A stretch of 64,000 bases of DNA from Evtepia sp. Its GTDB lineage: Bacteria > Bacillota > Clostridia > Oscillospirales > Oscillospiraceae. The notes beneath the pieces were generated by a model. That model made no database searches, was not told where the DNA came from, and saw only the letters and a list, made by a program, of their open reading frames with translations. The stretch is taken from positions 346,591 to 410,590 of the forward strand of contig JAXGMZ010000001.1 of assembly GCA_040768225.1 (NCBI GenBank), read 5' to 3'. How positions within the stretch are numbered: position 1 is the stretch's first letter; each line of letters begins with the position of its first letter. Positions 34,342 to 63,172 of the stretch are shown in pieces. A program made the position numbers and the translations under genes.

Positions 34342-37300
34342 TTAGGGGTTGCTGATTCTGAAGGGGGTGAATGCCGAGCTGACAAAGGCGATAATTTTAC
34401 CTGTGGAATCATAGACAAGAATCTGCATATAGCCGCCCTGATCAATTACGGCGAAGGGGTTGGAGGAATCCAGATCGCTCTCGCTTCCGGTGTCAACAAA
34501 GAGCACCGTGGCGGCGGGAGCCTGCGTGGCGGCATCTGCCGGGCACCTGAGCATCCCCGATGCGGAGTCATAGCTTCCGCTAAAGGTATAGCCGAGGGAT
34601 GGGATGGACAGGCTGACCGTGCCGGTCGCTTTATTCGCCGTCAAATTCAGCTTGCCTGTTGATTGGGTGACGCCTGTTTTACCGGGTATGTAGCTTTGAA
34701 TGGTTGCGCTAAATTCACCGGATGATTTCTCAAGCAGCTCGGCGCTCGGCAGCTTAAGCCCGGTTTTTTTGACGGCGCTTACCTTGAGCGAGTAGAGCCA
34801 GGGAACTTGACTCTTGTTCACCACCATGACAAGCAGGTCGTGCAAGCCGACAGGCACCGTCACCGTACCGTCCTTACCCGTATAGGTTTTGACACAGGTA
34901 TTGCCCTGCATGAGCATTGCCACCACGTAGGTGTCCTTGCTGCCCGTGCTGATGACGTATTCAGAGTCAACGGGGGTGTTAAGGGGCTGCAGATACACAA
35001 ATCTGGCACCGAAAGCGGGAATGGTCAGGCTGCTTGAGGCGGTGCCGTAGCTAGAGAAGTCGTAGTTCAGATTGCTGCGGATGCTGTCAAAATCACTATT
35101 TGAGATGATGGATCCGGCAGAGAGGGAGGCATGAGAGACCAGCTTGTTGCCGGTGACATACATCTCAAAGAAGGGCCCTGCCATGTCATAAATATTCTTG
35201 CCGATTACCTTCTCAATATTGAATGGCGCCCAGTCGTGGACAAAGGTGGTGCCTCCGGCCGCGTAGGCCGCGCGGATATAGTTTGCGTCGCTGCTCGCCT
35301 GCTCCTGCAAATACTGTATCACCGGCAGGCGGGCATAGCCGTTCTCCGCGCTATAAAAATTGAACACCGTGGCAAAGCTTGGGATGAATCCATCAAACAC
35401 GCGCATATGGTGGAGACCGTAGTTCGAGGGGATATCGCCGCTGAATTTGTATTCATAGTAGCTTGCGGTTGCCTCGTCGAACCAGAGCGCGCCGAAGGTG
35501 GGATCCACGTAGCAATTCTGAATGAAGTGGAAAACTTCATGGACCATCGTGCTGTAAATCTGTTTGTTTACGGTTTTGGAGCTGTAGCCGTGTTTGAACA
35601 GCTTCGCATTGAGCTGGATTGTGCCTCCATTGAGCGTCCACCCGGAGATATAAACGCCGTCCTGCCCTGCCTTTTTGGCGCCCTCTTCCACGGCCATTTT
35701 TGTAATGAAGATCTCAAAGGGCCAGTCGCTGCGGGCGCTGGTCTCAAAGCCAAGCCGGCGGTATTCGGCTATAATCCCATTGATATCTACAAGGAATTGG
35801 GCCGCAGCGCTTTTCGTCAGTTCCTTATCCGTAAGGCTGGCGTAGACTTTGAAAGAACCCAGATTGGGGTCGAAGAAAAACTGAAGTTCTTTGGCCTGAA
35901 CAAGGAACTGAAAGCCGATGGCTTCCAGGCGCTTGAGGTCTCCCCCTCCCCCCGTTCCGGCGGGGCGCGCCATCTCTACAAACTCACTGTAGTTCGCAAG
36001 GTCAAGATTGCTGACGGTGGCATATCCCCCTGAGACAGTAGCGCGAACGGGCTTGAAGAGCACGCCCTTGTTGCCGCTCTCGGTTTTGTATTCAACACCG
36101 AGGAAGAGGAAGGTCTCCGTGTTCTCGGCGCCGGAGGGATTGCGGTTGAGCTTGACGGACAGCGTGATGGGCTCCTTTGGTATTTCGCTCAGCGCGATGC
36201 GGCTGCAAGAGGAGAGGGCATCGGGGTCTGAGGAATAGCCGTCATAGGAGATGCTCTGGCCGCCGCGCACCGTGACCGTGCCTGCGGAAGATGCGCCAAA
36301 ACCCAGCTTCACATCGCCCGCGATGACAGTCCCTTTGGCGGGAACGGGCTTGCCCTCCTCCACCCCGGCAGAGGGCGCATCTGCCAGCTTGTTTGCCATC
36401 CGCACAGCCAAGGCCAGCGCCTGTTCGGCGCTCGCTTTTTCAGCGGGGGCAAAGCGGTTGCCCCCCACACCATTGATCACCTCATTGGCGACCATGAAAT
36501 ATACGCTCTCACTTGCCCAGGAGGAAATCAGGTAGTTGTCCGCAAAGAGAGAGGGTCTTGTGTATGTCAATGAATGGTTTCCGTCCGTGGGCAGTGTCCA
36601 GCCGGGGATGGCATAGCGCTTATAGGCCCGGGTGAGCATGGTGGCCATCTGCTCCCTGTCGAGGATTGCTGCGGGAGAAAAGCTCGTCGCCCCCGTGCCG
36701 TTTACAATGCCAAGATGATAGGCCTTGATCACCTCGGGATCGGATGTGTCGTGGAAGGGGTTGGATCCGGCGGCCGCCTTGCTTCCGGAAAGGTATTCAT
36801 AAATTTTGACGGATACAGCGGCAAAATCGGCGCGGCTGATGGGTTTTCTCAGGTCAGCTTTTAAGAGCCTGTCAGGAATCAGCCCCTTTGCCAGCGCATC
36901 CGCAAGCTCCGCCGTTGCCCAGGGGGAGTTGATATATCCCTCTGCCCCAGAGGGAGGGAGAGGTTCCTCTCTCCCGGGCGGGGGGGTGTTCCCACCTGTC
37001 CCGGCGGCTGTTTCATAGCCCCGAATGTTGAAAAAACCGCAGCTGTCCGAGGCCTCGTTGTAGGACCAGCTTTCCATATCAGAGGGGAGGAGATAGTAAG
37101 CCCCGGGGGGCAATTCAAGGTTGGGGAAGATGTCCCAATAGGCGTTGGGCACATCTCTGTAGCCCATTCGCCCCTGCGCGGCATAGCTTCCCAGCAGCTC
37201 TCCGAATTCATTGTAGATGCTGATCGTGCCGGGGGCCTTCCCTCTGGCGCTGTTCCAGTGATAGGTCGTTGCCGACTGGATCAGGACGGTCTTTGAAACT

Positions 37301-37482
37301 TCAAACTGCAGGTAGTACGGCGGATCGTTGTATACAGTGTTGGTGTTCTCATTGGAATACAGCAGCTCATAATCATCCACATGCACGGCGCCGGCAGAGA
37401 GCCCGGGCAAGATGGGCAGGGCTCCCAGCAGGAAGCAAAGCGCAAGTGCAAGGGTTGAACTGCGTTGAAAGAATCTTTTCAT
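34342..37482 (-). CDS. Secreted SLH-containing putative zinc metallopeptidase
   Basis: Signal peptide; central SLH repeats (ISRADFAA, LDREQMATML); VHEVFH plus downstream WFDEATA (gluzincin-like). Confidence 0.8.
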   Translation of the reverse strand: MKRFFQRSSTLALALCFLLGALPILPGLSAGAVHVDDYELLYSNENTNTVYNDPPYYLQFEVSKTVLIQSATTYHWNSARGKAPGTISIYNEFGELLGSYAAQGRMGYRDVPNAYWDIFPNLELPPGAYYLLPSDMESWSYNEASDSCGFFNIRGYETAAGTGGNTPPPGREEPLPPSGAEGYINSPWATAELADALAKGLIPDRLLKADLRKPISRADFAAVSVKIYEYLSGSKAAAGSNPFHDTSDPEVIKAYHLGIVNGTGATSFSPAAILDREQMATMLTRAYKRYAIPGWTLPTDGNHSLTYTRPSLFADNYLISSWASESVYFMVANEVINGVGGNRFAPAEKASAEQALALAVRMANKLADAPSAGVEEGKPVPAKGTVIAGDVKLGFGASSAGTVTVRGGQSISYDGYSSDPDALSSCSRIALSEIPKEPITLSVKLNRNPSGAENTETFLFLGVEYKTESGNKGVLFKPVRATVSGGYATVSNLDLANYSEFVEMARPAGTGGGGDLKRLEAIGFQFLVQAKELQFFFDPNLGSFKVYASLTDKELTKSAAAQFLVDINGIIAEYRRLGFETSARSDWPFEIFITKMAVEEGAKKAGQDGVYISGWTLNGGTIQLNAKLFKHGYSSKTVNKQIYSTMVHEVFHFIQNCYVDPTFGALWFDEATASYYEYKFSGDIPSNYGLHHMRVFDGFIPSFATVFNFYSAENGYARLPVIQYLQEQASSDANYIRAAYAAGGTTFVHDWAPFNIEKVIGKNIYDMAGPFFEMYVTGNKLVSHASLSAGSIISNSDFDSIRSNLNYDFSSYGTASSSLTIPAFGARFVYLQPLNTPVDSEYVISTGSKDTYVVAMLMQGNTCVKTYTGKDGTVTVPVGLHDLLVMVVNKSQVPWLYSLKVSAVKKTGLKLPSAELLEKSSGEFSATIQSYIPGKTGVTQSTGKLNLTANKATGTVSLSIPSLGYTFSGSYDSASGMLRCPADAATQAPAATVLFVDTGSESDLDSSNPFAVIDQGGYMQILVYDSTGKIIAFVSSAFTPFRISNP

Positions 37483-38110: not shown

Positions 38111-40940
38111 TCACTTCCACCCATCAAAGCTGTGCAGCACCGCCGCGACCTGCGCGCGCGTGGCATCGCCCTGCGGCGTGAGTTTCCCCTCGCTGCCCTG
38201 CATCAAACCCGCTCCGCAGGCCCACTGCAGCGCCGCAATGGCGTATTCGGAGATGTCGAAGGCATCCTCATAGGAGAGAATATTGCTCTCCTCGCCCAGA
38301 GATACATCATAGCCCTTCTGCTGCGCGTAGCGGTGGAGAATCGCCGCCATCTGCTCGCGGGTGATCGAATCATTCGGCCCGAAGCCAGCGCCCCCGTAGC
38401 CGCTCACAATCCCATGTTCCGCCGCCCAAGCCACAGCTTCGGCATACCACGCGCCGGGGCTCACATCGGAGAACGCAGCCGCGCCGGCGGCTTCCGGACT
38501 GCCCTCCATCCGCCAGAGCACCGTGACGAGCATGCCGCGCGTCATGCCGAGATCGGGGCTGAAGATCGCCTCCGCCGTGCCCGTCATCAGGCCGCGCAGG
38601 GCGACATACGCGATGTCTTCGCTCGCCCAGTGCGCCGCCGTGTCGCTAAAGTTTGGAGCTTCCCTGTAGCCGATGCCGAAGCTTGAGAAGTGGCCGGTGT
38701 CAAAGAAGAGCGTCTGGGCAGTTTGGCTGTAGCTGGAATTCCAAAGCCACGCCACAGCGCCCGCCCCGTCCACATAGACAGCGAAGAGGCCGCCCGGATG
38801 TTCGCCCTCGGCGGGGGCATAGGGCAGGGAGAGCGCAATCCGGCCGCCGCCGAACTCCGTGATCGCCCGCGCCCCATCAGAGATGGAGAGCCGGTAGAAG
38901 GGGCGGGAGCCGAGGGCAAGTTTTGCCGCGCCCGCAAGGCCCGCCGGGTCAATCCGCTCGGCGGAGATGGTGATCTCTTCGCCCATGTTCCGTAAAATCG
39001 TTTGCAGCGTCTGCAAGTCCAGCGAGAGGGAAATCTGCGGCGTTTTGATCTCTAAATAGCGCACGCCCGCCGCCGTCAAGGCCTGATAGACCCCCCGGCT
39101 GAGGGTCAGGGGCAGGCTGTTAAACTGCGTTTGCAGCCCCGAGAGGTCGATGGAGACGGCGAGGCCGTTTCCATCGCTGCCCGCGCTGGCTGCCAGCGCC
39201 GCGTCGATGGCGCTTTTTACATCCTGCTCTGTGACCCTTACGCTGGCGATGCCGCTCGCGTCCACTGTTGCGGCGGGTGTGACGCTGCCCACGGCGGGCG
39301 GGTTCGGCTGCTCCGGGGTGGGCAGCGGCGTGGCGGCGGTGATGCTGCTGCCGGTGCTGCTGCTCCCGCTCCCTCCGCCGCCTCCGCCGCTAGAGCGGGG
39401 GATTTCTGTCCACTGGGCGTAGAGGGTCATATCTGATGTGACGGTATCCTTTGCAAAATCCCAAACTTCGGCGAATGCTGCATCTTTATACCAAGCGGAA
39501 AAGCTATACCCGTCTCTGGTCGGGTCATCGGGTTTTGTGATAGTTTGCCCATGGGAGATGATAGCTTCAGGAACTGCGCTGCCGCCCTTGACATCAAAGG
39601 TCACGGTGTAGGAATTGAGTGTCCACTGGGCGTAGAGCGTATGGTTTTCGGTCACGGTGACGACGGTAGCCGAAGTAACCTTATCACCGCCCTCGTCAGC
39701 GGTGAACCAGCCGTTAAATGTATAGCCCTCGCGGGTGGGGGTCGGAAGATCGCCGTAGGGATCGCCACTGACGACGGGCTGGGATTCCGGAAACACCGTG
39801 CCGCCCTTGGCATCAAAGGACAGGGTATGACTGGTCTTAAGAATAGGATACGCTACATTAGATAAATTTGTCCAGTTGAGATAATTGTTTGGTGTGGCCT
39901 GTGCCTGCACCCAGTCGTTGAGCGCAGCACAGAGGGTGCCTGTTTTGGTATTTGCGCCAATTGTATAGGAAAAATCGCTCTCCGTGCCCTTGCCCTGTGC
40001 TTCTGTAAATTTTTCGTAGTTTGTGACATTGTTTCCGTTGCCGCCACTCCCGCTAGCAACGCTCGCCGCTGTATTGAGCCAGTAGCAATTGGTCATCGTG
40101 CCACCATTGCTCCTTCCTAGAAGGCCGCCGGCGTCGCTGCTTGCAGTCACCGCGCCTGTGTTATAGCAGTTTGTAACCGTACAGTTATCAGCAATATATC
40201 CCACAAGGCCGCCGGCAAAGCTAACATCGCCGCCGTTTGCCGTCACCGTGTCTGTGTTGTAGCAGTTGGTCACCGTGCTGTCATTTTTAGTATATCCCAC
40301 AACGCCGCCGGCATAGTTTTTTTCCCCCATTGCTTGCAGCCACAGTGCCCATGGTGTTATAGCAGTTCTTCACTGTACCTTCGTTTAGCCCGACAAGGCC
40401 GCCTGCATAAGCTCTTGCACCACCGGTAGCGCTACTTGCGCCTTGGTAGTTGCAGTTGATTATCTTGCCGGTATTAGTATTAAATCCTGCGATGCCGCCA
40501 GCATAATTATCGTCGCTGCCGCTGGCGCTTACGCTGCCCGAAACTGAAAGGTTTTGCACAGTACCTTTCAAAAGCCCGAACAACCCAGCGAAATCAGTGT
40601 TTTTTACCGTCATATTACTGATGCTGTATCCGTCGCCGTCAAATGTGCCGGAAAAATTGCCCATCGGCGTCCAAAGATAGCCGCTCAGGTCGATATTTGC
40701 CGTGAGGGTGACGGTGTTACCGGAAAGAGAATTGTTTTTATCGACCACCTTTGTCAGCCACGCCAGCCCCTCGGCGCTGGAGATGGTGACATCGCCGCTG
40801 CCCTCATCGACAACATACCCATCTGGCTTTTCCGTGACATATTCCGTCCACGTTTCCGGATCCGCCGCCCAGGCCGCCATCGGCAGCAGGGCGAGCAGCA
40901 TGCAGGCCGCCAGCAGGGTGGATAATACTCGTTTTTTCAT
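38111..40940 (-). pseudogene. GLUG-repeat + InlB-B-repeat + SLH adhesin-like protein, frameshifted
   Basis: ORFs 40287-40940 and 38111-40330 join (ASNGGKNYAGG) if one base is removed from the GGGGG-AAAAAAA tract at 40317-40328; YAGG..G.N GLUG motifs; PTREGYTFNGW and PTRDGYSFSAWY repeats; C-terminal SLH domains. Confidence 0.85.
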
Positions 40941-48201: not shown

Positions 48202-48837
48202 GTGACGGCGCTGTATTTTGCGTATGGTTTGGACGCCATTGAATACCTGAAAAAGAAAGATAAGCGGCTGGGAGATGCCATTGAACGAATTGGCCCGATC
48301 CAACGTAAGACGGAGAGTGATCTGTTTACCGCTGTTGTCCATCATATTGTCGGCCAGCAGATCTCCACTGCCGCACAGGCAACGGTTTGGGCTCGGCTGC
48401 AGGGGTTATTGGGGAAGGTTTGTGCGGATACGGTTTGCCTTTTCTCGCGGGAAGAGCTGCAAAGCTGTGGCATTACGTTTAAAAAAGCGGACTATATCCT
48501 GGCTTTTGCGCAGAAGGTGCAGTCTGGCGAATTTAATGTGGAGGCTCTCCGGGACATGGCGGATAAAGATGTCATCGCCACTCTCTCCTCCCTTAATGGT
48601 GTAGGGGTGTGGACCGCTGAAATGCTGATGATTTTTTGTATGCAGCGTCCAGATGTTGTGAGCTATGGGGATCTTGCGATCCGCCGCGGAATACGAATGC
48701 TTTACCGCCACCGCAAGCTGGATAAAAAAATATTCGCCAAATACGCGCGAAGGTACTCCCCCTATGGGTCAGTGGCCAGCCTGTACCTTTGGGCAATTGC
48801 CGGCGGCGCTATTCCGGAGTTGGATGATCCGGGATGA
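48202..48837 (+). CDS. DNA-3-methyladenine glycosylase II (AlkA-like)
   Basis: IVGQQISTAA, LNGVGVWTAEM, DLAIRRG, YSPYGSVASLYLW. Confidence 0.9.
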   Translation: MTALYFAYGLDAIEYLKKKDKRLGDAIERIGPIQRKTESDLFTAVVHHIVGQQISTAAQATVWARLQGLLGKVCADTVCLFSREELQSCGITFKKADYILAFAQKVQSGEFNVEALRDMADKDVIATLSSLNGVGVWTAEMLMIFCMQRPDVVSYGDLAIRRGIRMLYRHRKLDKKIFAKYARRYSPYGSVASLYLWAIAGGAIPELDDPG

Positions 48838-49044
48838 GTGCTTGAACTCAGCCTGTGTGTACGGGGCTACAGGATCGTATTCATACAGCCTTGATACGGT
48901 ATGCGTTTAAGAGTGTCTTTTTGACAAAGTCGGCCGCTTCATAGTTTGGCTCTGGCACAAAAAAGAGTGGCGCGCTGTAAAAGCCGCTTTGCCATGAGAG
49001 CATCCGCAAACAGGGCGACCCCACATCGCTTCTGTTACGATATA

Positions 49045-49112
49045 ATTACGGCATCCACACCGTAGACCCGCTTGCTTTGCGTCGCCGGCTTTCGCCGGTT
49101 TTGCCTTTCGCT
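49045..49112 (-). ncRNA. c-di-GMP-I (GEMM) riboswitch aptamer, 3' end degenerate
   Basis: Minus strand AAAGGCAAAACCGGCGAAAGCCGGCGACGCAAAGCAAGCGGGTCTA matches GGCAAA-P2(GAAA)-GACGCAAAGC; expected closing ..GCC(N)nTTGCC not found. Confidence 0.65.
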
Positions 49113-49343
49113 TTATTCTATTGCATATCACTGTTGATCTTTTATTTAACGAGCATTGCAAACGCAGGGATCAAGACAAGCGCTAAATAGACTCCGTACT
49201 TATAACTACATTATTTCGCCCCTTGTTTTTTGCCTGATACAATGCTTGATCAGCCATATGAGTAAAAACGCGATCAAGGCAATTGTAACGATTAGCTGCA
49301 GTAAAGAAGGGATTGTAAACCACTTTCGCATATAAGATCCCCC

Positions 49344-51485
49344 CTAGCCCGTAATCGTTTCAACATGGTATGGGACATCTATTATATTAAAAAACAGTTG
49401 TGCAATGTCCGGATCAAATTGTGTGCCCATATTACGCTCGATCTCTTTGATTGCCATATCTTTCGGCAAAGCCTTACGGTATATTCGATCCTCTGTCATC
49501 GCATCGTACGCATCGGCAATCGCAAGAATCCGTGAAATAACAGGAATCTCCCGCTCCTTTAGCCCGATGGGATAGCCCGTCCCATCCCATCGCTCATGGT
49601 GATATAAAATATAGTCGGCGATATGCTCCAGCTGCGGGGTTGACATGGCGATGCGATGCCCGATTTCGGGGTGCTGCCTCATGATAACCCACTCGCTTTC
49701 GGTCAGCTTGCCCGTCTTATTTAGGATACGATCATCAATGCCGATCTTCCCGATATCATGGAGCTTGGATAACAGCTGCAGTTCATCCAGCTCTTTTTGT
49801 GATAGCCCTAGCTGTTCTCCGATTGCATGACAAAGCAGCCCCAGCCTTTGGCCATGCTGTTCTGTTTCCTGACTTTTCGCATACAGCGTTGCCATGATGG
49901 AAGAGACGATGGCCGAGTGGGAGCTGTTTTGGTTGAGGAGTTTGCGGCGGCTCAGATATTCCTCCGCAGCTCTCGTTACATCCTGCATCGTCTGGTGTTC
50001 CGTTTCCTTTGTGGCGTGCCCTATGGAGATGCTACTTGCATAAAGTGCCTTTTCACTTGCTCTGTTATAGCTTTCGACCGCATGTTTGATCTCCTCTTTT
50101 AACTGATGGGCAGCCTGGCTGTCTGTGTGCGGCAGCAGAAGGATATATTCGCCGCCGCCAGCGTGTCCAAGTACAGATTCATTGCGTAAGCACCCTTGGA
50201 TCAGATGCGCTGTTTTTATAATGAGACGGTCCCCCTCTTCATGTCCATAGGCATCGTTAATCATGCGCAGCCCGTCAATATCACAAATGGCGATGGACAG
50301 GGGCCAAAACTCCGGCTGATCCAGATACTTTTTCTGTTGCTCTATATAGTTGCGATTGTAAAGGCCGGTGAGAAAATCATGCTCCCGCAGATGCGCGATC
50401 TGAGCATCCTTATTCTTTTGGTCGGAAATGTCCAACACAACTCCCTCAAGGGCTTCCAGCTTACCGTCATCGTCATAAACGCCCTGGCCTAATTCCAAAA
50501 CCCACTTCCGTTCTCCGGACTTTGTGAGGATCTCGTATTCATCGCGGTACCGCTTGCGCTGTATCAATACTCGTTTCCATTCAGCCCGGACAAGATCGCG
50601 GTATTCGGGAGAAATGAGCCCGTTAAAAGAGAGCATTTTGTCCGTGGTAAAGCTTTCCGCCTTATACCCCGTCAGGTCATAGCAGCCCTCCGAAACAAAT
50701 TCCATTGTCCAGTTTTCGTTATCTTGGCATCGGTAGGCCATGCCGGGGATATGGGAGAAAAACACAGCTTTGCTGCGCTCGCTTTCCTGACGGGACGCTT
50801 CCGCTTCTTTAAATCTTGCGTTTTTTCTCAGGAGGTTAAAGAGCGTAAAAACAAGTGCGGCGAGGCATGCGACAACCATAATGTCGGGAATCATCTTTTT
50901 CCATAGCTTTGCCTGCCACTCGAGCGCAGAATAGCTCAGTCCGAGGACGGCGATGACGCTTTTTCCGTTTGCATCATAGATTGGCACCAGCGCCCTGATC
51001 CAATTTCCGCAGGGGAGGGAAATGGGATCGGTAATATAACTTTGCCCCGTTCCAAAAGATATTTGGTTTATGTCCGCGGTTTCCTCACAACTGCGTCTTG
51101 TCGGGTGGGAAGTGTCGGAATTGGCGGCAGATGAATCTGCGATAACGGAAATGCTCCCACTCTGCTGCTTTAAAATATAGGCATAATAAATCGAATCCGT
51201 GACCTCGACCAGATGTGTCAAGGACTCTTCGACAAGACAGCCATCGGGAGCGGTTGCCTGATTGCTCGATGCCAGCTCCGCTATATGCTCTACATGCAGC
51301 AGCGAGCCTACTGACTGTGCGAGGTTTGTCGCCTCCAGTTTCGCCATCTGCTGGTATCTGCTCCAGGCAAAATATAAGTATAGGCTCGCCAATATAACCA
51401 CGATTAAAACCGTGGAGACCATAGGTAACAATATACGGGGATGCAGGCCCTCTGCTAAAACCCTCTTGACTTGTTTATCTCTCAT
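49344..51485 (-). CDS. Membrane PAS + degenerate GGDEF + HD-GYP c-di-GMP phosphodiesterase
   Basis: PAS (HIPGMAYRC..WTMEFVSEG); GGGEY in place of GGDEF; LHDIGK...HHERWDGTGYP...DAYDAMT. Confidence 0.9.
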   Translation of the reverse strand: MRDKQVKRVLAEGLHPRILLPMVSTVLIVVILASLYLYFAWSRYQQMAKLEATNLAQSVGSLLHVEHIAELASSNQATAPDGCLVEESLTHLVEVTDSIYYAYILKQQSGSISVIADSSAANSDTSHPTRRSCEETADINQISFGTGQSYITDPISLPCGNWIRALVPIYDANGKSVIAVLGLSYSALEWQAKLWKKMIPDIMVVACLAALVFTLFNLLRKNARFKEAEASRQESERSKAVFFSHIPGMAYRCQDNENWTMEFVSEGCYDLTGYKAESFTTDKMLSFNGLISPEYRDLVRAEWKRVLIQRKRYRDEYEILTKSGERKWVLELGQGVYDDDGKLEALEGVVLDISDQKNKDAQIAHLREHDFLTGLYNRNYIEQQKKYLDQPEFWPLSIAICDIDGLRMINDAYGHEEGDRLIIKTAHLIQGCLRNESVLGHAGGGEYILLLPHTDSQAAHQLKEEIKHAVESYNRASEKALYASSISIGHATKETEHQTMQDVTRAAEEYLSRRKLLNQNSSHSAIVSSIMATLYAKSQETEQHGQRLGLLCHAIGEQLGLSQKELDELQLLSKLHDIGKIGIDDRILNKTGKLTESEWVIMRQHPEIGHRIAMSTPQLEHIADYILYHHERWDGTGYPIGLKEREIPVISRILAIADAYDAMTEDRIYRKALPKDMAIKEIERNMGTQFDPDIAQLFFNIIDVPYHVETITG

Positions 51486-51754: not shown

Positions 51755-52279
51755 CTAATTCTCCGCCAGTTTTGATAGCGCGGAAAATTCGCTTTCGCCA
51801 AGGATTTTCCCAGCGTGGAGCAGTAAGGCTACACGCTCCTTCTGGCCTTCATCTGCTTGTAAGGTAGCGATCCCCGTCAAGTAATCGCTGACATGTGAAG
51901 GCACGTTGCCTATTTTTGGCGGTTCGGAAATCTGCTGTGCCTCGATATCGGTGACTTCGTCGACCTGATCGACAATAAGGCCAAAATCATTCCCCTGCAC
52001 ATGGGCGATTATGATGCAGGTCCGCTCAGTGAACTGCGCTTCATCCTTCCCGAAGCGCAATCGAATATCAATGACAGGTATGATTTGACTGCGCAAATTG
52101 ATCATGCCTTTGACATAAGGCACTTGTTCCGGCAAGGGTATCACCTCCTGCATCTGCGCAATCTGAACAATCTCTGTGATCGGCAGACCGAATAGCTGTC
52201 CATCCGTAAAGAAGGTCAGGTATCGGTTACTGGACTCTTCAGTTAATTGAGAGGTCAGTACTTGTTCTTGCAGTTCCAT
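51755..52279 (-). CDS. cheW: Chemotaxis coupling protein CheW
   Basis: YLTF, YVKGMINLRSQIIPVIDIRLRF, GLIVDQV. Confidence 0.92.
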   Translation of the reverse strand: MELQEQVLTSQLTEESSNRYLTFFTDGQLFGLPITEIVQIAQMQEVIPLPEQVPYVKGMINLRSQIIPVIDIRLRFGKDEAQFTERTCIIIAHVQGNDFGLIVDQVDEVTDIEAQQISEPPKIGNVPSHVSDYLTGIATLQADEGQKERVALLLHAGKILGESEFSALSKLAEN

Positions 52280-52297: not shown

Positions 52298-54079
52298 TTA
52301 ATACTTTCCCAGGCCGAACGCCGCTTCGGGCAGTCGATCTTCAAACCGCGGCTTGCTTTGGGAGGCAATGGACAAAATATGCTCTTGCGCTGCTCCGTCA
52401 GCCAGCTTGAATTTTCTAATCTCTCCGCGCAGCGCCGCGGCCTGTGCGGACATTTCCTCACTGGTGGCGGAGTTTTCCTCCGCCGTGGCGGCATTTGTTT
52501 GCACCACAGAGGAAATCTGGGAGAGCCCATCCTTAATCTGCTCGATTGCAGCGGTCTGCTCGGCAATCGATTTTTCAATTTTTTCAAAGTTATCCGTTAC
52601 TTCACCCGTGCTTGTGCCCACATCCCGAAGAATTTGAGCCGTTTGGCTGGTAATCTCCGCACCCTTTTCCACCGCAATCACAGAGGACTGAATCAGGGTT
52701 CCCGTCTGCTGGGCAGCTTCGGCCGATTTTGCGGCAAGATTACGGACTTCATCCGCCACAACTGCAAAGCCCTTTCCCGCATTGCCTGCCCGCGCCGCTT
52801 CAATCGCAGCATTGAGCGCGAGGATGTTCGTTTGGAACGCGATGTCTTCTATCACCTTTGTAATGCTGGCAATCTGGCTAGAGCTGGAGCTGATATCCGC
52901 CATTGCCTGGGATAGCTGCCCCATGTGCTCATTGCCTGTGTTGACTCCCATACCTGCCTGATCAACAAAACTGCTTGCTGATATAATTGCCACCAAATTT
53001 TCTTCCGCTTGCTTTGCAATGGTCTCCACGGAGGCCTCCAGTTCCTCCACGGAGGCTGCCTGTTCCGTTGAGCCCGCTGCCAGCGCCTGTGCACCGCTGG
53101 ATACCTGATCGGAGCCCGCAGCTACCTGCTCGGCCGCCGTATCGATGTTGAGCATTGTATGATTCAGGGCAGAAACGGTATCTTCTATTTCCCGCTTCAG
53201 AACCGCGAAGTCTCCGGGGTAGTCCAAATCTACCCGAAGCCGCAAATCTCCATGGGATATTTTTTCAAACTTATCGATGACATCCTCGACGATTGCGCCT
53301 TGCATCGCATTGGTTTGTTGAATCAGTTTGGTCATCTGCCCGAGCTCGTCACGGCTTTCATAGCGGATTACGGTCTTCATATTGCCTTTGGCTATTTCAC
53401 CGTAGGCATCTACAATTTCATTGACAGGCGTGAGGATAGACTTTCTGATGATGATTGTTAAAAACACGGAAAGCGCTGCGGCCACAGCTCCGCACACAAT
53501 CATCGCAAGTAGAGCGAATTTAACCGTAGCCACTGCGTCCTGCTCCTGATGAACAGCACGCTCATCTGCAGTTGTGGTGAATTTAACCATAATTTCAGCC
53601 GCCTGATCCATGATCGGTACATAGTCGTATTCGTACCTTTCTCTTGCTTGTTGCATGTTAGCTTCCGTTGGCGTCGCCGCGAGTTCGGCAATTTCTAGCC
53701 GTATTTTCCCCGCCTTACCGAACAGCTCCCGCAGTTTTGCAATATCCGCATCACGGCTTGTATCCCTTTGGTTTCCCTCGTACCGATCAAATTCACTCAG
53801 TAATGTCGTCGAATCTTGTTGGGCCGAATCGAACCATTTTGAAACTTTCACTGCGTCAGCCTCAAGCAGTCCATTAGCCATATCCCTCTGTATAGAAACT
53901 GTGTTACGACGAATCACCCAGATACTTGTGCTGTTTGGCAGTGTGTATTTCGCGTAGGAATGAATCTGCTCATTGATGCCGTTGATGCTTAAGATTGCGA
54001 CTGCGATGGTGATCAGGAGCATGACTAAAATGGCGCCGAATCCAATGATAAGCTTTTTGCTGATCGATAGGTTTTTCAT
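52298..54079 (-). CDS. Methyl-accepting chemotaxis protein (four-helix sensor + HAMP)
   Basis: Two TMs; DELG HAMP; [37 protein letters not shown]; RBS ggaggg before ATG 54079. Confidence 0.95.
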
Positions 54080-54141
54080 ACTGTTTCCCTCCAAAATGTT
54101 TTAGAGCCGCTGTTAGCGGGGTAAGTTGCTTTTGTGCAAAA

Positions 54142-54161
54142 CACATAATTCTCATTATGTT
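54142..54161. repeat. Left inverted repeat of invertible cassette (dif-like)
   Basis: cacataattctcattatgtt; exact reverse complement of 54401-54420. Confidence 0.9.
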
Positions 54162-54233
54162 GTAATAACGAAAAAGAAATTGTAAGATATATACTGTTAT
54201 TAAATAATCAGGAGTAAAAATAGAAAAGCAAAT

Positions 54234-54265
54234 AGGCCGATTAGATAAAATACTTCTATCGGTCT
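54234..54265. terminator. Bidirectional terminator inside the cassette
   Basis: aggccgattaga...tctatcggtct with U-rich tails on both strands. Confidence 0.7.
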
Positions 54266-54334
54266 TGTTTTCGTGTATAAAATTTAATTCTATTTGATAA
54301 AAATATCAGCTTGTGAATTGCGTCAACGAATCGC

Positions 54335-54363
54335 TTGTTATTTCCACCATGAAGTAGTATAAT
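54335..54363 (+). promoter_or_regulatory. sigmaA promoter inside the cassette, currently pointing away from the MCP gene
   Basis: TTGTTA-17-TATAAT, 37 bp from the right repeat. Confidence 0.75.
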
Positions 54364-54400
54364 ATTATGTAAATTTATGTTGAATTATTAATATAAATGT

Positions 54401-54420
54401 AACATAATGAGAATTATGTG
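54401..54420. repeat. Right inverted repeat (overlaps the recombinase stop codon)
   Basis: aacataatgagaattatgtg. Confidence 0.9.
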
Positions 54421-55271
54421 ACCGCTAATCTCATTTGCTCAATTTGATGGGCATGGATCGCGCCACTCTCAATCGTATAAATTCGCGTTGTATTCACATT
54501 GGAATGACCGAGTATATCCGCCAGGCGAAACAAATCCTTTTCCAGCGCATAATAAGTTCGCGCAAATAAATGGCGTAGGTTGTGAGGAAACACCTTTTCG
54601 GGTGCTACTCCCGCACGTTTACACAGGCTCTTCATGTCCCGCCAGATATTAGAACGATTGAGGGGTTTGCCCGCTTTTGTGATGAATATATGCCCGGAAG
54701 CCAATTGCTGCTTCCGGGCATATTGCATCAGTGCCCGGCACAGCCTTTTGGGAAGAAAGATGGTGCGCATCTTGCCCTTGCAGTTGACAACCGCGCGCCC
54801 TGCTCTTGCTGCTTCTATTGTGATGAATTGCAGTTCGGAAACACGAATCCCTGTGGCGCAGATGGTTTGGAGAACGAATGATAGTCGTTCATTTCCCTCC
54901 TGCTCGGCTGCTCGAACCAGACGCAGGTATTCCTCACGGGTAAGCTCCTTTTCTTCCCCGCAAAACAGACTTCTTTGTATCTTAAGCGGTTTAAGCTTGA
55001 AATCGAACCAGCCGGCAAAGCTTAAAAAAGCATTGACTCCCGCAAGCATGGTATTGACGCTGGATGGTGCGTATTGCTGTGTCAGTGCCTCCTTCCACCG
55101 GATTAAACTAGTTTTAGAGACTGGTTCATGATCAAGAAATCTGCGCAGTGCGGCAAGGCTGCGTTCATAGGCCTCAATGGTTGAGTTACCCTTTTCTTGC
55201 TCTTGAAGATAGGAAATAAAAGCTTTTGTCCTTTTAGGGGTAATCGTTCGGATTTCTTCATTTTGCGACAT
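54414..55271 (-). CDS. XerD-like tyrosine recombinase (285 aa), candidate invertase
   Basis: TGIRVSEL (R), KGK (K), HNLRHLFA (HxxR), LGHSNVNTTRIY (H, Y); no arm-binding N-terminal extension. Confidence 0.93.
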   Translation of the reverse strand: MSQNEEIRTITPKRTKAFISYLQEQEKGNSTIEAYERSLAALRRFLDHEPVSKTSLIRWKEALTQQYAPSSVNTMLAGVNAFLSFAGWFDFKLKPLKIQRSLFCGEEKELTREEYLRLVRAAEQEGNERLSFVLQTICATGIRVSELQFITIEAARAGRAVVNCKGKMRTIFLPKRLCRALMQYARKQQLASGHIFITKAGKPLNRSNIWRDMKSLCKRAGVAPEKVFPHNLRHLFARTYYALEKDLFRLADILGHSNVNTTRIYTIESGAIHAHQIEQMRLAVT

Positions 55272-55529
55272 GATATAGAATCTCCTTTCGTGCGCTAGAC
55301 ATATTGTACCATTGCATTGCTTTCATCTGAAGAAATGCGAACCACCGCCTTATCCTATACACTTTTGCTTCTTTATTACGATTTATACCACTTCTCCAAC
55401 TGTTATAATCGACATATTAAACTCTCATCCACCTTGCCCGCAAAAATATTACATTGCAGAAAAATAAACAGGGCTGACTGCAGGCCCCGCTCTTTCGGTA
55501 TATTACAAGTTTTCTGGCAGCTGCTCTTT

Positions 55530-55662: not shown

Positions 55663-56127
55663 TTACATGGACTGTTCCTGAGATCTCCGTAGGCTCTCTT
55701 CTGTCATCTCATAAATCTGCTGCTTAATATCGGGGATGATGGCTTCGATTTTCAGTTGGATATCGGTCAGCTGCTGGACATCCTTCTTTGTTAACTCGTA
55801 GCCTGCCTCAAAGGTGCCGTTCACGCTTTGATAACTATCCATCAGCTGCTTGTGGCTGAATAGTCGTTGTTCATCGGTCAGGCCGGCTCAGATGGCAAAG
55901 TCCTGCTTTTCATCGGAATGATTGTCCAGATAGTAGTGCCTCCACATCACCCCGGTTTCATCATAGTCACACTCCCATGTGACAAATTGATCGCCATGCT
56001 GGGTTTCTCGACCGGCGGGCCAGGTACCAATCAGAATGGGGAGGGTGTCCTTCTCCGGCGGCGCTGTTTCGATTTCGTTTTTGCCAAGGATCCGGGAAAG
56101 CTCTGTGAAATATTTTTTAGTGTCCAT
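55663..56127 (-). pseudogene. Decayed paralogue of the 61138-61809 gene
   Basis: MDTKKYFTEL...; in-frame loss of about 69 codons; premature TGA at 55888; homology resumes to ...QEQSM*. Confidence 0.9.
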
Positions 56128-56154
56128 AAATATTCCCCTTCGTTTTTATTTGAA

Positions 56155-57277
56155 CTTGAATTTACAATGTAAGTGCAACAGCAGAAAAAAGAAATGACTC
56201 AGAGCAAGGAATCCGATACCATAGTGTTTGTGAGGACAACTATGGGAGGAAGCCAAGACAATGAGTCATTATCATCATCTTAGCATAACCGAAAGAGAAA
56301 AGATACTTGTGCTGCGCACAGAAGGAAAAAGCTTACGGACGATATCAGCGGAAATTGGGCGTTCAGTGTCAACAGTGACGCGGGAAATCAAACGTAACAG
56401 TCGCCCTGATGAAAGCTACTCTGCGGTAGAAGCGCACAGAAAATACTGTAAACGTCGAAAAAAATGCAGGCGTCATAAGTTGCTTTCAGATGTGGGATTG
56501 ATGGAAACAGTAAAGCGTCTGTTTCTTGAACTGCAATGGTCGCCGGAACAAATCTCAAATCGCCTTCTTTATGAAAACAGCATGTTCAAAATCAGCTATT
56601 CGACGATCTATCGGGCAATTTACGCGGGATTGTTTGACACTCCTGAGCAACGGCATTCCAAAGGAAACCGAGGTGCAATCAGAAAGCTACGCCATCGCGG
56701 AAAGACAAGGCGGCGCAGAGGGACGATAGAAACCAGGGGGAAGATTGTTATCAGCAACCGGATCCAGGAGCGGCCAAAAGAAGCGGAGGGGCGTCAAGTC
56801 ATCGGTCATTGGGAAGCCGATACTCTGGCAGGGAAAACAGGTTCCGCCTGTCTTGTAACCATTACAGACAGGTGCAGCCGCTATCTGCTGGCCGGAAAGG
56901 TTGCAAAGAGATATTCTGCTTCGGTTGCTGAAAAAATGATTACTTTGCTTTCCGCTCTGCCTAAGAAGAAACTAAAAAGTATCACCCCTGACCGGGGTAA
57001 AGAGTTTTCCAAGCATAGTTCTGTAACACAGGCACTGAAGGGATTGCAGTTTTACTTCCCAGACCCTCACGCTCCTTGGCAGCGTGGAACAAATGAGAAC
57101 ACCAATGGCCTGCTCAGAGAATATCTGCCGAAATCCTTCGATATCGCTCTTTCTTCTGATAGCGACATCAAGAACTTCATGAACAAACTAAATTTCAGAC
57201 CCCGCAAATGCTTAGCTTGGAAATCCCCTCATGAAGTCTTTTTTAATCAAGTGTTGCTTTTGACTTGACAATTCAAG
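56155..57277 (+). mobile_element. IS30-family element, copy 1 (1123 bp)
   Basis: Imperfect IRs CTTGAATTTACAATGTAAGTGCAACA / CTTGAATTGTCAAGTCAAAAGCAACA; 2-bp target duplication AA. Confidence 0.95.
56261..57268 (+). CDS. IS30-family transposase
   Basis: LSITERE HTH, WSPEQIS, GHWEADT, ITPDRGKEF, PWQRGTNENTNGLLREY. Confidence 0.97.
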   Translation: MSHYHHLSITEREKILVLRTEGKSLRTISAEIGRSVSTVTREIKRNSRPDESYSAVEAHRKYCKRRKKCRRHKLLSDVGLMETVKRLFLELQWSPEQISNRLLYENSMFKISYSTIYRAIYAGLFDTPEQRHSKGNRGAIRKLRHRGKTRRRRGTIETRGKIVISNRIQERPKEAEGRQVIGHWEADTLAGKTGSACLVTITDRCSRYLLAGKVAKRYSASVAEKMITLLSALPKKKLKSITPDRGKEFSKHSSVTQALKGLQFYFPDPHAPWQRGTNENTNGLLREYLPKSFDIALSSDSDIKNFMNKLNFRPRKCLAWKSPHEVFFNQVLLLT

Positions 57278-57410
57278 AAATAAAAAAAGCCCGTACATTT
57301 CTGTACGGGCCTCAGATCAACTCTAAATTTTATCAAGTGTCCAGTCTTTTTAATTATGGTAGTGTATGAAAAAACCACAAGGCTTTTTTGGCCTTGTGGT
57401 TTATCATTTT

Positions 57411-57448
57411 TGGTGGAGACGAGGGGGATCGAACCCCTGACCTCCTGA
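57411..57448 (-). repeat. att site: 3' fragment of tRNA-Ala
   Basis: 37/38 identical to 63097-63134. Confidence 0.9.
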
Positions 57449-61137: not shown

Positions 61138-61809
61138 TTACATGGATTGCTCCTGGGCTTTTCGGAACTGCTGTTCTGTCATCTCATAAATCTGTCTGTT
61201 AATATCGGGGATGAGCGCTTCAATCTGTGTCTGGATGCCGGAGAGCTGCTCTGCCTCCGCATCGCTTAGCTCATATCCAGCCTCAAAGGTGTCGTTTACA
61301 CTTTGGTAGATGTCCATGAGCTGCTTGTCGCTGAATAGCCGCTGTTCATCGATCAGGCCGGAGCGGATGGCAAAGTCCTGCTTTGCATCCAAGTAATTGT
61401 CCAGATAGTAGTGCCCCCACATCACTCCGGTTCCATCATAGTCGCGCTCCCATGTGACGAATTGATAGCCATGCTGGGTTTCCCGGCCAACGAGGACGGC
61501 TCCGTTAAATTCGGCAAGCAGCCGGAATTCCTCGTCCAGTGCCACGGCTTCGAGCAAGGGTGACTTTTCCATCGCCGTCATATATTCTTTTACCATGGTG
61601 GCGATGGGTGCTGCCTTGAAGTATAAATCACTGGCTTCCGGGCTGTCCAAGTCGCCGGGAAACTTGCATAATTCTCCGCTGGGGCCTACTCGACAGGCGG
61701 GATGTGTACCAAGCAGAATGGGGAGGGTGTTTTTTTCCGGAGGCGCTGTCTGGATTTCATTCTTTCCAAGCACTCGGCAAAGCTCTGCAAAGTATCTTTT
61801 CGTATCCAT
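61138..61809 (-). CDS. Clostridial ICE-type hypothetical protein, first gene of the element
   Basis: QFVTWE..G..WGHYY..NY..AKQDFAIRSGLI motif; RBS gaaaggag. Confidence 0.8.
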   Translation of the reverse strand: MDTKRYFAELCRVLGKNEIQTAPPEKNTLPILLGTHPACRVGPSGELCKFPGDLDSPEASDLYFKAAPIATMVKEYMTAMEKSPLLEAVALDEEFRLLAEFNGAVLVGRETQHGYQFVTWERDYDGTGVMWGHYYLDNYLDAKQDFAIRSGLIDEQRLFSDKQLMDIYQSVNDTFEAGYELSDAEAEQLSGIQTQIEALIPDINRQIYEMTEQQFRKAQEQSM

Positions 61810-61838
61810 ATGTGTGTTCTCCTTTCGTTTTTCTGTGA

Positions 61839-62961
61839 CTTGAATTTACAATGTAAGTGCAACAGCAGAAAAAAGAAATGACTCAGAGCAAGGAATCCGA
61901 TACCATAGTGTTTGTGAGGACAACTATGGGAGGAAGCCAAGACAATGAGTCATTATCATCATCTTAGCATAACCGAAAGAGAAAAGATACTTGTGCTGCG
62001 CACAGAAGGAAAAAGCTTACGGACGATATCAGCGGAAATTGGGCGTTCAGTGTCAACAGTGACGCGGGAAATCAAACGTAACAGTCGCCCTGATGAAAGC
62101 TACTCTGCGGTAGAAGCGCACAGAAAATACTGTAAACGTCGAAAAAAATGCAGGCGTCATAAGTTGCTTTCAGATGTGGGATTGATGGAAACAGTAAAGC
62201 GTCTGTTTCTTGAACTGCAATGGTCGCCGGAACAAATCTCAAATCGCCTTCTTTATGAAAACAGCATGTTCAAAATCAGCTATTCGACGATCTATCGGGC
62301 AATTTACGCGGGATTGTTTGACACTCCTGAGCAACGGCATTCCAAAGGAAACCGAGGTGCAATCAGAAAGCTACGCCATCGCGGAAAGACAAGGCGGCGC
62401 AGAGGGACGATAGAAACCAGGGGGAAGATTGTTATCAGCAACCGGATCCAGGAGCGGCCAAAAGAAGCGGAGGGGCGTCAAGTCATCGGTCATTGGGAAG
62501 CCGATACTCTGGCAGGGAAAACAGGTTCCGCCTGTCTTGTAACCATTACAGACAGGTGCAGCCGCTATCTGCTGGCCGGAAAGGTTGCAAAGAGATATTC
62601 TGCTTCGGTTGCTGAAAAAATGATTACTTTGCTTTCCGCTCTGCCTAAGAAGAAACTAAAAAGTATCACCCCTGACCGGGGTAAAGAGTTTTCCAAGCAT
62701 AGTTCTGTAACACAGGCACTGAAGGGATTGCAGTTTTACTTCCCAGACCCTCACGCTCCTTGGCAGCGTGGAACAAATGAGAACACCAATGGCCTGCTCA
62801 GAGAATATCTGCCGAAATCCTTCGATATCGCTCTTTCTTCTGATAGCGACATCAAGAACTTCATGAACAAACTAAATTTCAGACCCCGCAAATGCTTAGC
62901 TTGGAAATCCCCTCATGAAGTCTTTTTTAATCAAGTGTTGCTTTTGACTTGACAATTCAAG
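61839..62961 (+). mobile_element. IS30-family element, copy 2 (1123 bp)
   Basis: Same IRs and length as copy 1; 2-bp target duplication GA. Confidence 0.95.
61945..62952 (+). CDS. IS30-family transposase (protein identical to copy 1)
   Basis: Identical 335-aa translation. Confidence 0.97.
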   Translation: MSHYHHLSITEREKILVLRTEGKSLRTISAEIGRSVSTVTREIKRNSRPDESYSAVEAHRKYCKRRKKCRRHKLLSDVGLMETVKRLFLELQWSPEQISNRLLYENSMFKISYSTIYRAIYAGLFDTPEQRHSKGNRGAIRKLRHRGKTRRRRGTIETRGKIVISNRIQERPKEAEGRQVIGHWEADTLAGKTGSACLVTITDRCSRYLLAGKVAKRYSASVAEKMITLLSALPKKKLKSITPDRGKEFSKHSSVTQALKGLQFYFPDPHAPWQRGTNENTNGLLREYLPKSFDIALSSDSDIKNFMNKLNFRPRKCLAWKSPHEVFFNQVLLLT

Positions 62962-63096
62962 GAAAATAAAAAAGGCCCGTACATTTCTGTACGGACCTCA
63001 GATCACCTTTGAATTTTATCAAGTGTCCAGTCTTTTTACTTATGGTAGTGTATGAAAAAACCACAAGGCTTTTTTGGCCTTGTGGTTTATCATTTT

Positions 63097-63172
<76 letters not shown>

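Follow-up and report, generated by a model that had tools for sequence, protein, structure and literature searches.

This report concerns a stretch of 64,000 nucleotides from Evtepia sp. (class Clostridia; contig JAXGMZ010000001.1 of assembly GCA_040768225.1, positions 346,591 to 410,590), referred to below as the window, and a putative invertible promoter switch located in it between the genes of a tyrosine recombinase and of a methyl-accepting chemotaxis protein (MCP). We believe, at a probability of about 80%, that the locus is a promoter inverton of the fim type, in which an Xer-like recombinase would act on two dif-like core sites and gate the genes of MCP, CheW and a predicted phosphodiesterase (PDE) of cyclic di-GMP (c-di-GMP). 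The window copy is intact and in the OFF orientation. The original prediction, made from the sequence alone, was of an invertible promoter run by the adjacent recombinase, controlling chemoreceptor and c-di-GMP genes and OFF at present; this is supported by the architecture of 61 out of 64 relatives, by the flipped segment in the relative L084 and by the mixed junctions in Muricomes intestini. The elements of the switch are listed below in the coordinates of the window.

54414..55271, minus strand: Xer-like tyrosine recombinase of 285 aa, putative invertase (Pfam matches Phage_integrase, 5.6e-26, and Phage_int_SAM_1)
54401..54420, no strand assigned: right inverted repeat, proximal dif-like core site, 20 nt
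54335..54363, plus strand: sigma-70-type promoter motif TTGTTA-17-TATAAT, consensus match 10/12
54225..54273, no strand assigned: hairpin preceded by an A-rich and followed by a T-rich tract, upstream of the promoter (folding and conservation)
54162..54400, no strand assigned: 239-bp invertible segment in the orientation called OFF, GC 0.25
54142..54161, no strand assigned: left inverted repeat, distal dif-like core site, 20 nt

The two repeats (arms) were originally described as perfect and as enclosing 239 bp of AT-rich DNA, which is correct: the complementarity is 100% over 20 nt, the gap is 239 nt and its GC content is 0.25. With up to three mismatches the arm sequence is found in the 64 kb at these two sites only (0 expected from 100 shuffles); the pattern ACATAA-N6-TTATGT is also limited to the two arms within the window (0.04 expected). 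Each arm consists of two inverted half-sites, ACATAA and TTATGT, about the asymmetric 6-bp centre TTCTCA, and in the orientation of the recombinase gene the right arm with its flanks reads gcggtc ACATAA-TTCTCA-TTATGT tacatt. The dif site of E. coli is GCGCATAA-TGTATA-TTATGTTAAAT (the left part is also written as in GGTGCGCATAA-TGTATA-TTATGTTAAAT); the window arm, CACATAA-TTCTCA-TTATGTT, is similar to it in layout and in much of the sequence.

The recombinase gene ends inside the right arm, in agreement with the initial description: its TAA stop codon (54414-54416) belongs to the proximal core site. The catalytic residues R143, K167, H230, R233, H256 and Y265 are all present and invariant across an alignment of 26 sequences; the protein carries the family motifs PHNLRHLFA and SNIWRDMK and is at least 49% identical to the family considered below. 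The closest solved structures are XerA (4a8e and 5hxy) and XerD (1a0p), and the best models are XerA (130.5 vs. the NCBIfam cut-off of 220), XerD (113.5 vs. 329.6) and XerC (105.5 vs. 335), so that no NCBIfam cut-off is reached. Since all the scores are far below the curated family cut-offs, we regard the predicted protein as Xer-like and not as an Xer orthologue, and presume that it is the invertase.

At least 8000 proteins are related to this recombinase at E<=1e-20 (8000 of 8000 scored), the top matches being 60-84% identical; with one genome per species, at least 595 pattern matches, out of the 600 listed, encode relatives of the recombinase. Records on plasmids are few (five, mostly megaplasmids). 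The best 80 loci were analysed in detail, 64 of them with enough downstream DNA. An inverted repeat pair follows the recombinase gene in 61 of the 64; for these 61 loci the arms are 16-30 bp long (median 22), the gap between them is 194-335 bp (median 233), the first arm begins from -25 to +48 nt relative to the recombinase stop, and in 53 cases a co-directional open reading frame (ORF) lies just past the second arm. The arm consensus derived from the aligned loci is (a/t)(c/a)ACATAA-TnnnnA-TTATGT(t/g)GTa. Different loci have different 6-bp centres; within one locus the centre is the same in both arms, and it is self-complementary in none of 62; identical non-palindromic centres make directional inversion by a tyrosine recombinase possible and are exactly what it requires. 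The window locus fits the family in having two inverted core sites with identical non-palindromic centres, 239 bp apart, the first of them at the recombinase stop.

Most segments of the family hold a strong promoter motif of the sigma-70 type, scoring up to 12/12 (TTGACA-17-TATAAT), with the -10 box at 8-60 nt, mostly 22-50 nt, from one of the arms. The promoter direction could be called clearly in 41 loci: toward the recombinase in 33, as in the window, and toward the cargo in 8. The hairpins of the family show no bias to the promoter strand (25 vs. 37). Thus described, the predicted switch of the window is one member of a very large and little-studied family of Clostridia rather than a single curiosity. 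Three core sites are found in each of the loci L010 (5852-5871, 5906-5927 and 6164-6185) and L014 (1510-1531, 1563-1589 and 1829-1855): two of them, in direct orientation at a spacing of about 50 bp, follow the recombinase stop, and the third is inverted. This may reflect a duplicated site or a switch of greater complexity.

Inverted forms are observed among the relatives. The nearest of them, L084, has a recombinase 84% identical to that of the window, an MCP 78% identical (410 aa) and flanks collinear with the window; its 236-bp segment is 85% identical to that of the window as the reverse complement and 62% in the forward direction. The promoter of L084, TTGTTA-17-TATACT, faces the MCP gene at 36 nt from the distal arm, and we take this locus for the predicted ON form in a sister lineage. 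Compared as reverse complements, the segments of L034 and L041 show 93% identity (65% forward) and those of L021 and L034 show 82%.

Both orientations coexist in Muricomes intestini DSM 29489 (L005), whose recombinase is 75% identical to that of the window and whose downstream gene encodes a GGDEF protein. The Logan contigs from two runs of isolates are interrupted precisely at the two arms, with junction unitigs of 38 nt for either orientation side by side: the depths are 181 and 167.5 for the reference junctions and 60 and 70 for the alternative ones in run X33, and 4.9 and 9.6 vs. 8.1 and 15 in run X35. At their loose ends the alternative unitigs carry the reverse complements of the opposite flanks (AATCACAT and TGATAGCC), as must be the case for an inversion. 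In Blautia (locus L012), positions 5852-6077 are inverted with respect to both flanks in a 16.6-kb contig of run X64, and the contigs of run X58 break at the arms. Weak signs of a mixed state are found in the runs for L004: breaks at both arms and one 37-nt junction unitig of depth 2 (X76).

The assemblies themselves also bear on this. L041 is a fold-back contig (5757-5894 and 6133-6270), whose last 138 nt repeat, as the reverse complement, the 3' end of the recombinase gene together with the core site; such a pattern results from an assembly graph with both orientations of the switch. The contigs of 13 of the 80 relatives end 15-250 bp past the recombinase stop (L015, L017, L023, L030, L037, L040, L044, L045, L056, L061, L063, L071 and L073), as do L086 and L087; the two contigs of P0003 both end inside the core site. 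It appears that switches of the ACATAA-N6-TTATGT family systematically interrupt assemblies.

The motif TTGTTA-17-TATAAT was originally reported in the segment as pointing away from the MCP gene, and it is found there; it shares the top promoter-like score in the consensus scan of 53900-55500. Its -10 box ends 37 nt short of the right arm, and the predicted promoter is directed antisense into the 3' end of the recombinase gene. Its -35 and -10 boxes are kept in L084, L085 and L005. After inversion in silico the -10 box would end 119 nt before the MCP ATG, giving a leader of about 110 nt, which is close to the distance of about 100 bp proposed initially. A second motif, TCAACA-16-TATACT (54383-54356, minus strand, 9/12), overlaps the main -10 box face to face; a similar one, TCGACA-16-TATACT (10/12), is found at the same place in L004 and L085.

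The hairpin of the window folds on the plus (promoter) strand with -17.2 kcal/mol (z -5.2) and is followed there by UUGUUUUCG. It is conserved in L084, L085 and L005 with the compensatory change of GAU/AUC to GGU/ACC, and in these three loci both strands fold well (-15.5 to -20.6 kcal/mol). A simple terminator scan found no hairpin; the loop of 9 nt is past the loop limit of that scan.

In metatranscriptome run X12 the recombinase gene is represented by a single contig of 269 nt (depth 8.1) at 54430-54698, over its final 270 nt; the remaining part of the gene has no coverage. It would fit an antisense RNA from the OFF-state promoter; the contig is strandless and short of the predicted start near 54370. 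As the contigs carry no strand, and X13 may be DNA, runs X12 and X13 are uninformative on the promoter.

All genes of the locus are on the minus strand, in the order recombinase, invertible segment, MCP leader, MCP, cheW and the PAS/GGDEF/HD-GYP gene, and complete copies of the locus are found in metagenome runs from anaerobic digesters. A look-up of the exact recombinase sequence returned the source contig only, with the orientation unchanged, and the exact 20-mer arm gave two chance matches in JGI metagenome contigs (a eukaryote-like tandem repeat and an unrelated AT-rich contig). The fumarase of the host is at most 68% identical to any entry of the protein collection. The features beyond the switch are as follows.

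54080..54141, minus strand: MCP leader of 62 nt between the distal site and the ATG
52298..54079, minus strand: MCP, first gene behind the switch (domain matches 4HB_MCP, HAMP and MCPsignal)
51755..52279, minus strand: CheW coupling protein (domain match), start 18 nt past the MCP stop
49344..51485, minus strand: PAS / degenerate GGDEF / HD-GYP protein of 713 aa (domain matches and motifs)
55303..55331, minus strand: candidate promoter of the recombinase gene, TTCAGA-17-TACAAT with TG (consensus scan only, 9/12), about 30 nt upstream of the ATG

The MCP gene starts with the ATG at 54079, which is 62 nt from the left arm (63 bp had been given originally), and a ribosome-binding site GGAGGG (54087-54092) lies 7 nt upstream of the ATG. 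The consensus scan mentioned above gave no promoter-like match in the leader, and the Rfam search gave no element within the switch or the MCP leader. In the 713-aa protein the GGDEF motif is degenerate (GGGEY), and the HD and GYP motifs (HHExxDGxGYP) are intact; it is likely to be a c-di-GMP phosphodiesterase, and its gene presumably belongs to the operon of MCP and cheW.

Directly downstream of the PDE gene and on the same strand there is a c-di-GMP-I riboswitch aptamer (49003-49115, minus strand; Rfam RF01051, 45.2 bits with the gathering score of 35). No plausible ORF follows it, and the next real gene, HhH-GPD (48202-48837), is convergent, so the riboswitch looks orphaned. Between the PDE gene and the riboswitch there is an ORF of 46 aa (49183-49323, minus strand) with the C-terminus ...ADQALYQAKNKGRNNVVISTESI; its end resembles the C-terminus of a GGDEF domain, and the ORF is probably what is left of a diguanylate cyclase gene.

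We propose the following mechanism. The recombinase would bind both half-sites (ACATAA and TTATGT) of each core site, pair the inverted sites and exchange strands across the identical asymmetric 6-bp overlap TTCTCA, which would flip the 239-bp segment. In the OFF state the promoter would be directed at the 3' end of the recombinase gene and fire antisense to it, and no promoter in the 62-nt leader would be available to the genes of MCP, CheW and the PAS/GGDEF*/HD-GYP protein (the asterisk marks the degenerate domain). In the ON state the terminator would halt the read-through coming from the recombinase gene, and transcription from the promoter would run via a leader of about 110 nt through the MCP gene and cheW, and probably on into the HD-GYP gene. 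The ON subpopulation would gain a chemosensory input and a lower level of c-di-GMP. The activity of the promoter and the phenotype of switching are predictions of this scheme, and from the comparison with the relatives we infer that the window strain may still switch.

Several observations weigh against this interpretation. At the exact locus only the OFF orientation is found, in contigs of about eleven metagenomes that cross one or both arms, and no strand-changing joint corresponding to the ON junction (the left flank with the repeat, ...gcaaaacacataattctcattatgtt, joined to acatttatattaataattc) is present in them; these are consensus contigs at 2-9x depth, in which minority forms cannot show. 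A look-up of the exact recombinase sequence returned the source contig only, with the orientation unchanged, and the exact 20-mer arm gave two chance matches in JGI metagenome contigs (a eukaryote-like tandem repeat and an unrelated AT-rich contig). The 9/12 motif TCAACA-16-TATACT faces MCP in the present orientation and might account for some OFF-state expression, though we give it little weight. A gap of 269 nt lies between cheW and the PDE gene and makes their presumed co-transcription less certain. Finally, on the recombinase-sense strand of the window an A.C mismatch takes the place of a G.U pair, which leaves the hairpin weak there (-9.5 kcal/mol, z -1.3), and therefore some read-through into MCP is possible in the OFF state. 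The bidirectional terminator of the original prediction thus stands as a conserved hairpin, strong on both strands in three close relatives, and is asymmetric in the window (-17.2 vs. -9.5 kcal/mol); the hairpin said to block the recombinase read-through in the present orientation is there, and its fold on the relevant strand is too weak for us to adopt that statement in full.

These data can be read in other ways. The switch might be a fossil or locked one, i.e., an inverton by descent that no longer flips in the window strain, with the MCP operon silent or expressed by read-through only. The single orientation in every run holding the locus would agree with this, as would the inner flank of the promoter-side arm, TTATGTtaca, which deviates from the family consensus TTATGT(t/g)GTa. 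We consider such a state unlikely: the 20-bp arms are perfect, the recombinase is of full length with all its catalytic residues, the relatives in Blautia and M. intestini flip, and the depths available are too low to reveal a minority form. The strong asymmetry of the hairpin (-17.2 vs. -9.5 kcal/mol) would agree with a terminator toggle as in cwpV of C. difficile; the cargo would then be expressed by read-through from the recombinase promoter, gated by the orientation of the hairpin. This we hold to be quite unlikely, considering that a hairpin strong on both strands in three close relatives, with no strand bias in the family, cannot discriminate between the orientations, and that the directional feature conserved in position is the promoter; besides, under such a toggle transcription would pass more freely in the present orientation, the reverse of what the promoter predicts.

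The similarity of the sites to dif, the proximity of the recombinase to XerA and XerD and the mobile-element genes close by are also compatible with dimer resolution of a chromosome or plasmid, or with integration and excision of an element exploiting Xer, instead of inversion. It is very improbable that the sites serve this purpose: they are two, inverted, about 230 bp apart and right behind the recombinase gene in 61 of the 64 loci, and the window holds only these two; inverted sites invert and cannot excise; inverted forms are directly observed (Blautia, M. intestini, L084); and the recombinase is far below the cut-offs of the Xer families. That an inverted repeat arose by chance in AT-rich intergenic DNA beside an unrelated integrase has nothing in its favour except the low complexity of the region, and we give this hardly any credence. 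Such an origin is ruled out by the shuffles (0 of 100 give a match), by the repeat pairs and arrangement conserved across the family and by the consensus of the core sites. We therefore retain the promoter inverton as the preferred reading of the locus.

The cargo of the near relatives is also related to c-di-GMP: HD-GYP in L004, GGDEF in L005 and GGDEF-EAL in L014. L085 (76%) has the recombinase, the switch, HD-GYP, MCP and CheW amid relaxase, NikA-like and AAA_25 genes, a context resembling an integrative and conjugative element; on the basis of this gene context the sensory and c-di-GMP module and the switch appear to travel together on conjugative elements. The cargo of distant members includes SLH, cohesin, dockerin and BspA-type surface proteins, SPFH/zinc-ribbon proteins and TadZ, as well as solute-binding proteins, a histidine kinase and a TIR protein.

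It is plausible that the switch of the window is island-borne, as was supposed originally. The low GC content of 46-64 kb as compared with the remainder of the window, the IS30 copies, the mobile-element genes and the context of L085 agree with this part of the prediction and bear it out in part. A unit of about 1.8 kb is present there in direct repeat (55663-57448 and 61138-63134, 5.68 kb apart) and holds an IS30-like transposase gene (56261-57268 and 61945-62952, 97% identical). At its right end (62964-63134) the repeat passes into tRNA-Ala (63097-63172, minus strand), and therefore a partial tRNA copy is expected near 57411-57448. The interval between the two copies holds genes of a ParE toxin and a D12 methyltransferase as well as a serine recombinase fragment in which the resolvase domain is missing. 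Genes of a 980-aa GGDEF-EAL protein and of two large surface proteins with SLH domains (26751-29693, 34342-37482 and 38111-40330) are found in the host part of the window; these genes are unlinked to a switch of the ACATAA-N6-TTATGT family, as the window has no further core sites.

A more general suggestion, which we offer tentatively and would not yet call probable, is that a domesticated Xer/dif module serves here as a portable and self-contained switch cassette composed of a recombinase, two sites, a terminator and a promoter. If so, the locus-specific 6-bp centre would serve as an address, by which recombination among the several switches of one genome is avoided. The OFF promoter would transcribe antisense through the recombinase gene and slow down the OFF-to-ON switching, which could explain why 33 of 41 reference genomes are in the OFF orientation. 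The cassette would move with MCP, CheW and HD-GYP on mobile elements, and the chemosensory input to c-di-GMP would become phase-variable. The preferred reading of the locus, independent of this suggestion, accounts for an intact MCP-CheW-phosphodiesterase cluster without its own promoter: the switch would supply one. For this uncultured digester bacterium, a subpopulation differing in chemotaxis signalling and in c-di-GMP levels is predicted.

Such switches can be recognised by sequence, as an Xer-like recombinase together with a pair of ACATAA-N6-TTATGT sites, in at least about 600 species-level genomes of Clostridia, where they precede genes of c-di-GMP enzymes, surface proteins, pili and transporters. 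The state of a switch could be called from the sequence alone in gut and digester metagenomes, and many contig breaks behind recombinase genes of this type are explained. A small inversion system with a single protein and programmable centres may also be of use in experiments. We believe that the definition of the switch at the family level is the most useful outcome, more so than the single locus.

Among known systems, fimS of E. coli is the nearest in design. It has a promoter in an invertible segment of about 300 bp with short inverted repeats of 9 bp; the tyrosine recombinase genes are immediately upstream of the regulated genes and co-directional with them, and the recombinase transcript too is affected by the way the segment lies. 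The two recombinases, FimB and FimE, have a length of about 200 aa and no N-terminal SAM-like domain. The window locus is similar in that the promoter is inside a short flanked segment and the recombinase is upstream and co-directional, and differs by the Xer-like recombinase of 285 aa and the dif-like sites of 20-28 bp; this recombinase is not a member of the FimB/FimE type, since models NF007370 and NF007371 give 29.8 and 26.9 bits with cut-offs of 221 and 222. The Xer/dif systems with a single recombinase (archaeal XerA, XerH/difH and XerS/difSL) share with it the best matches (XerA and XerD) and the half-sites about a 6-bp centre; instead of one site at the terminus, the window has two inverted sites beside the gene, with inversion as the product.

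The invertible switches of C. difficile (pdcB, pdcC, flgB, cmrRST and cwpV) are similar in the host class (Clostridia), and the invertible promoter of pdcB also in the target: it phase-varies a protein with PAS, degenerate GGDEF and phosphodiesterase domains and thereby c-di-GMP (PMC9286219). The pdcB element, 174 bp in length and bounded by imperfect 19-bp repeats, is found 840 bp ahead of the gene; the recombinase acting on it is not encoded next to it and is reported as unidentified, and RecV acts in trans on flg and cmr (PMC9286219), so the original attribution of pdcB switching to RecV has to be dropped. The phosphodiesterase of pdcB is of the EAL type, whereas in the window an HD-GYP protein is linked to MCP and CheW, with the recombinase in cis.

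The original prediction did not recognise the switch as previously described, which was an overstatement. The 2025 survey of the hCom2 gut community contains inverton group 139: its 33 invertons come from 17 strains, 32 of the invertons belong to Clostridia, almost every one has a tyrosine recombinase close by, and the strongest link is to invertase group 35 (PMC11892184). Its examples show repeats of 26 and 14 bp around interiors of 205 and 227 bp, and in the reads the ratio of the two orientations changes in the course of passaging. The geometry, the taxon and the adjacency of the recombinase match the family of the window, so the two are probably the same (group 139 for the invertons and group 35 for the invertases), a comparison based on these three properties. 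The paper mentions no dif-like core, locus-specific centre or MCP/HD-GYP cargo, and in the searchable library our literature search gave no inverton of the dif-like or Xer type, none with locus-specific centres, none with MCP/CheW/HD-GYP cargo and no invertible promoter joined to an MCP. The mechanism of a promoter inverton and the phase variation of a c-di-GMP phosphodiesterase were thus known already; what is new here is the cargo.

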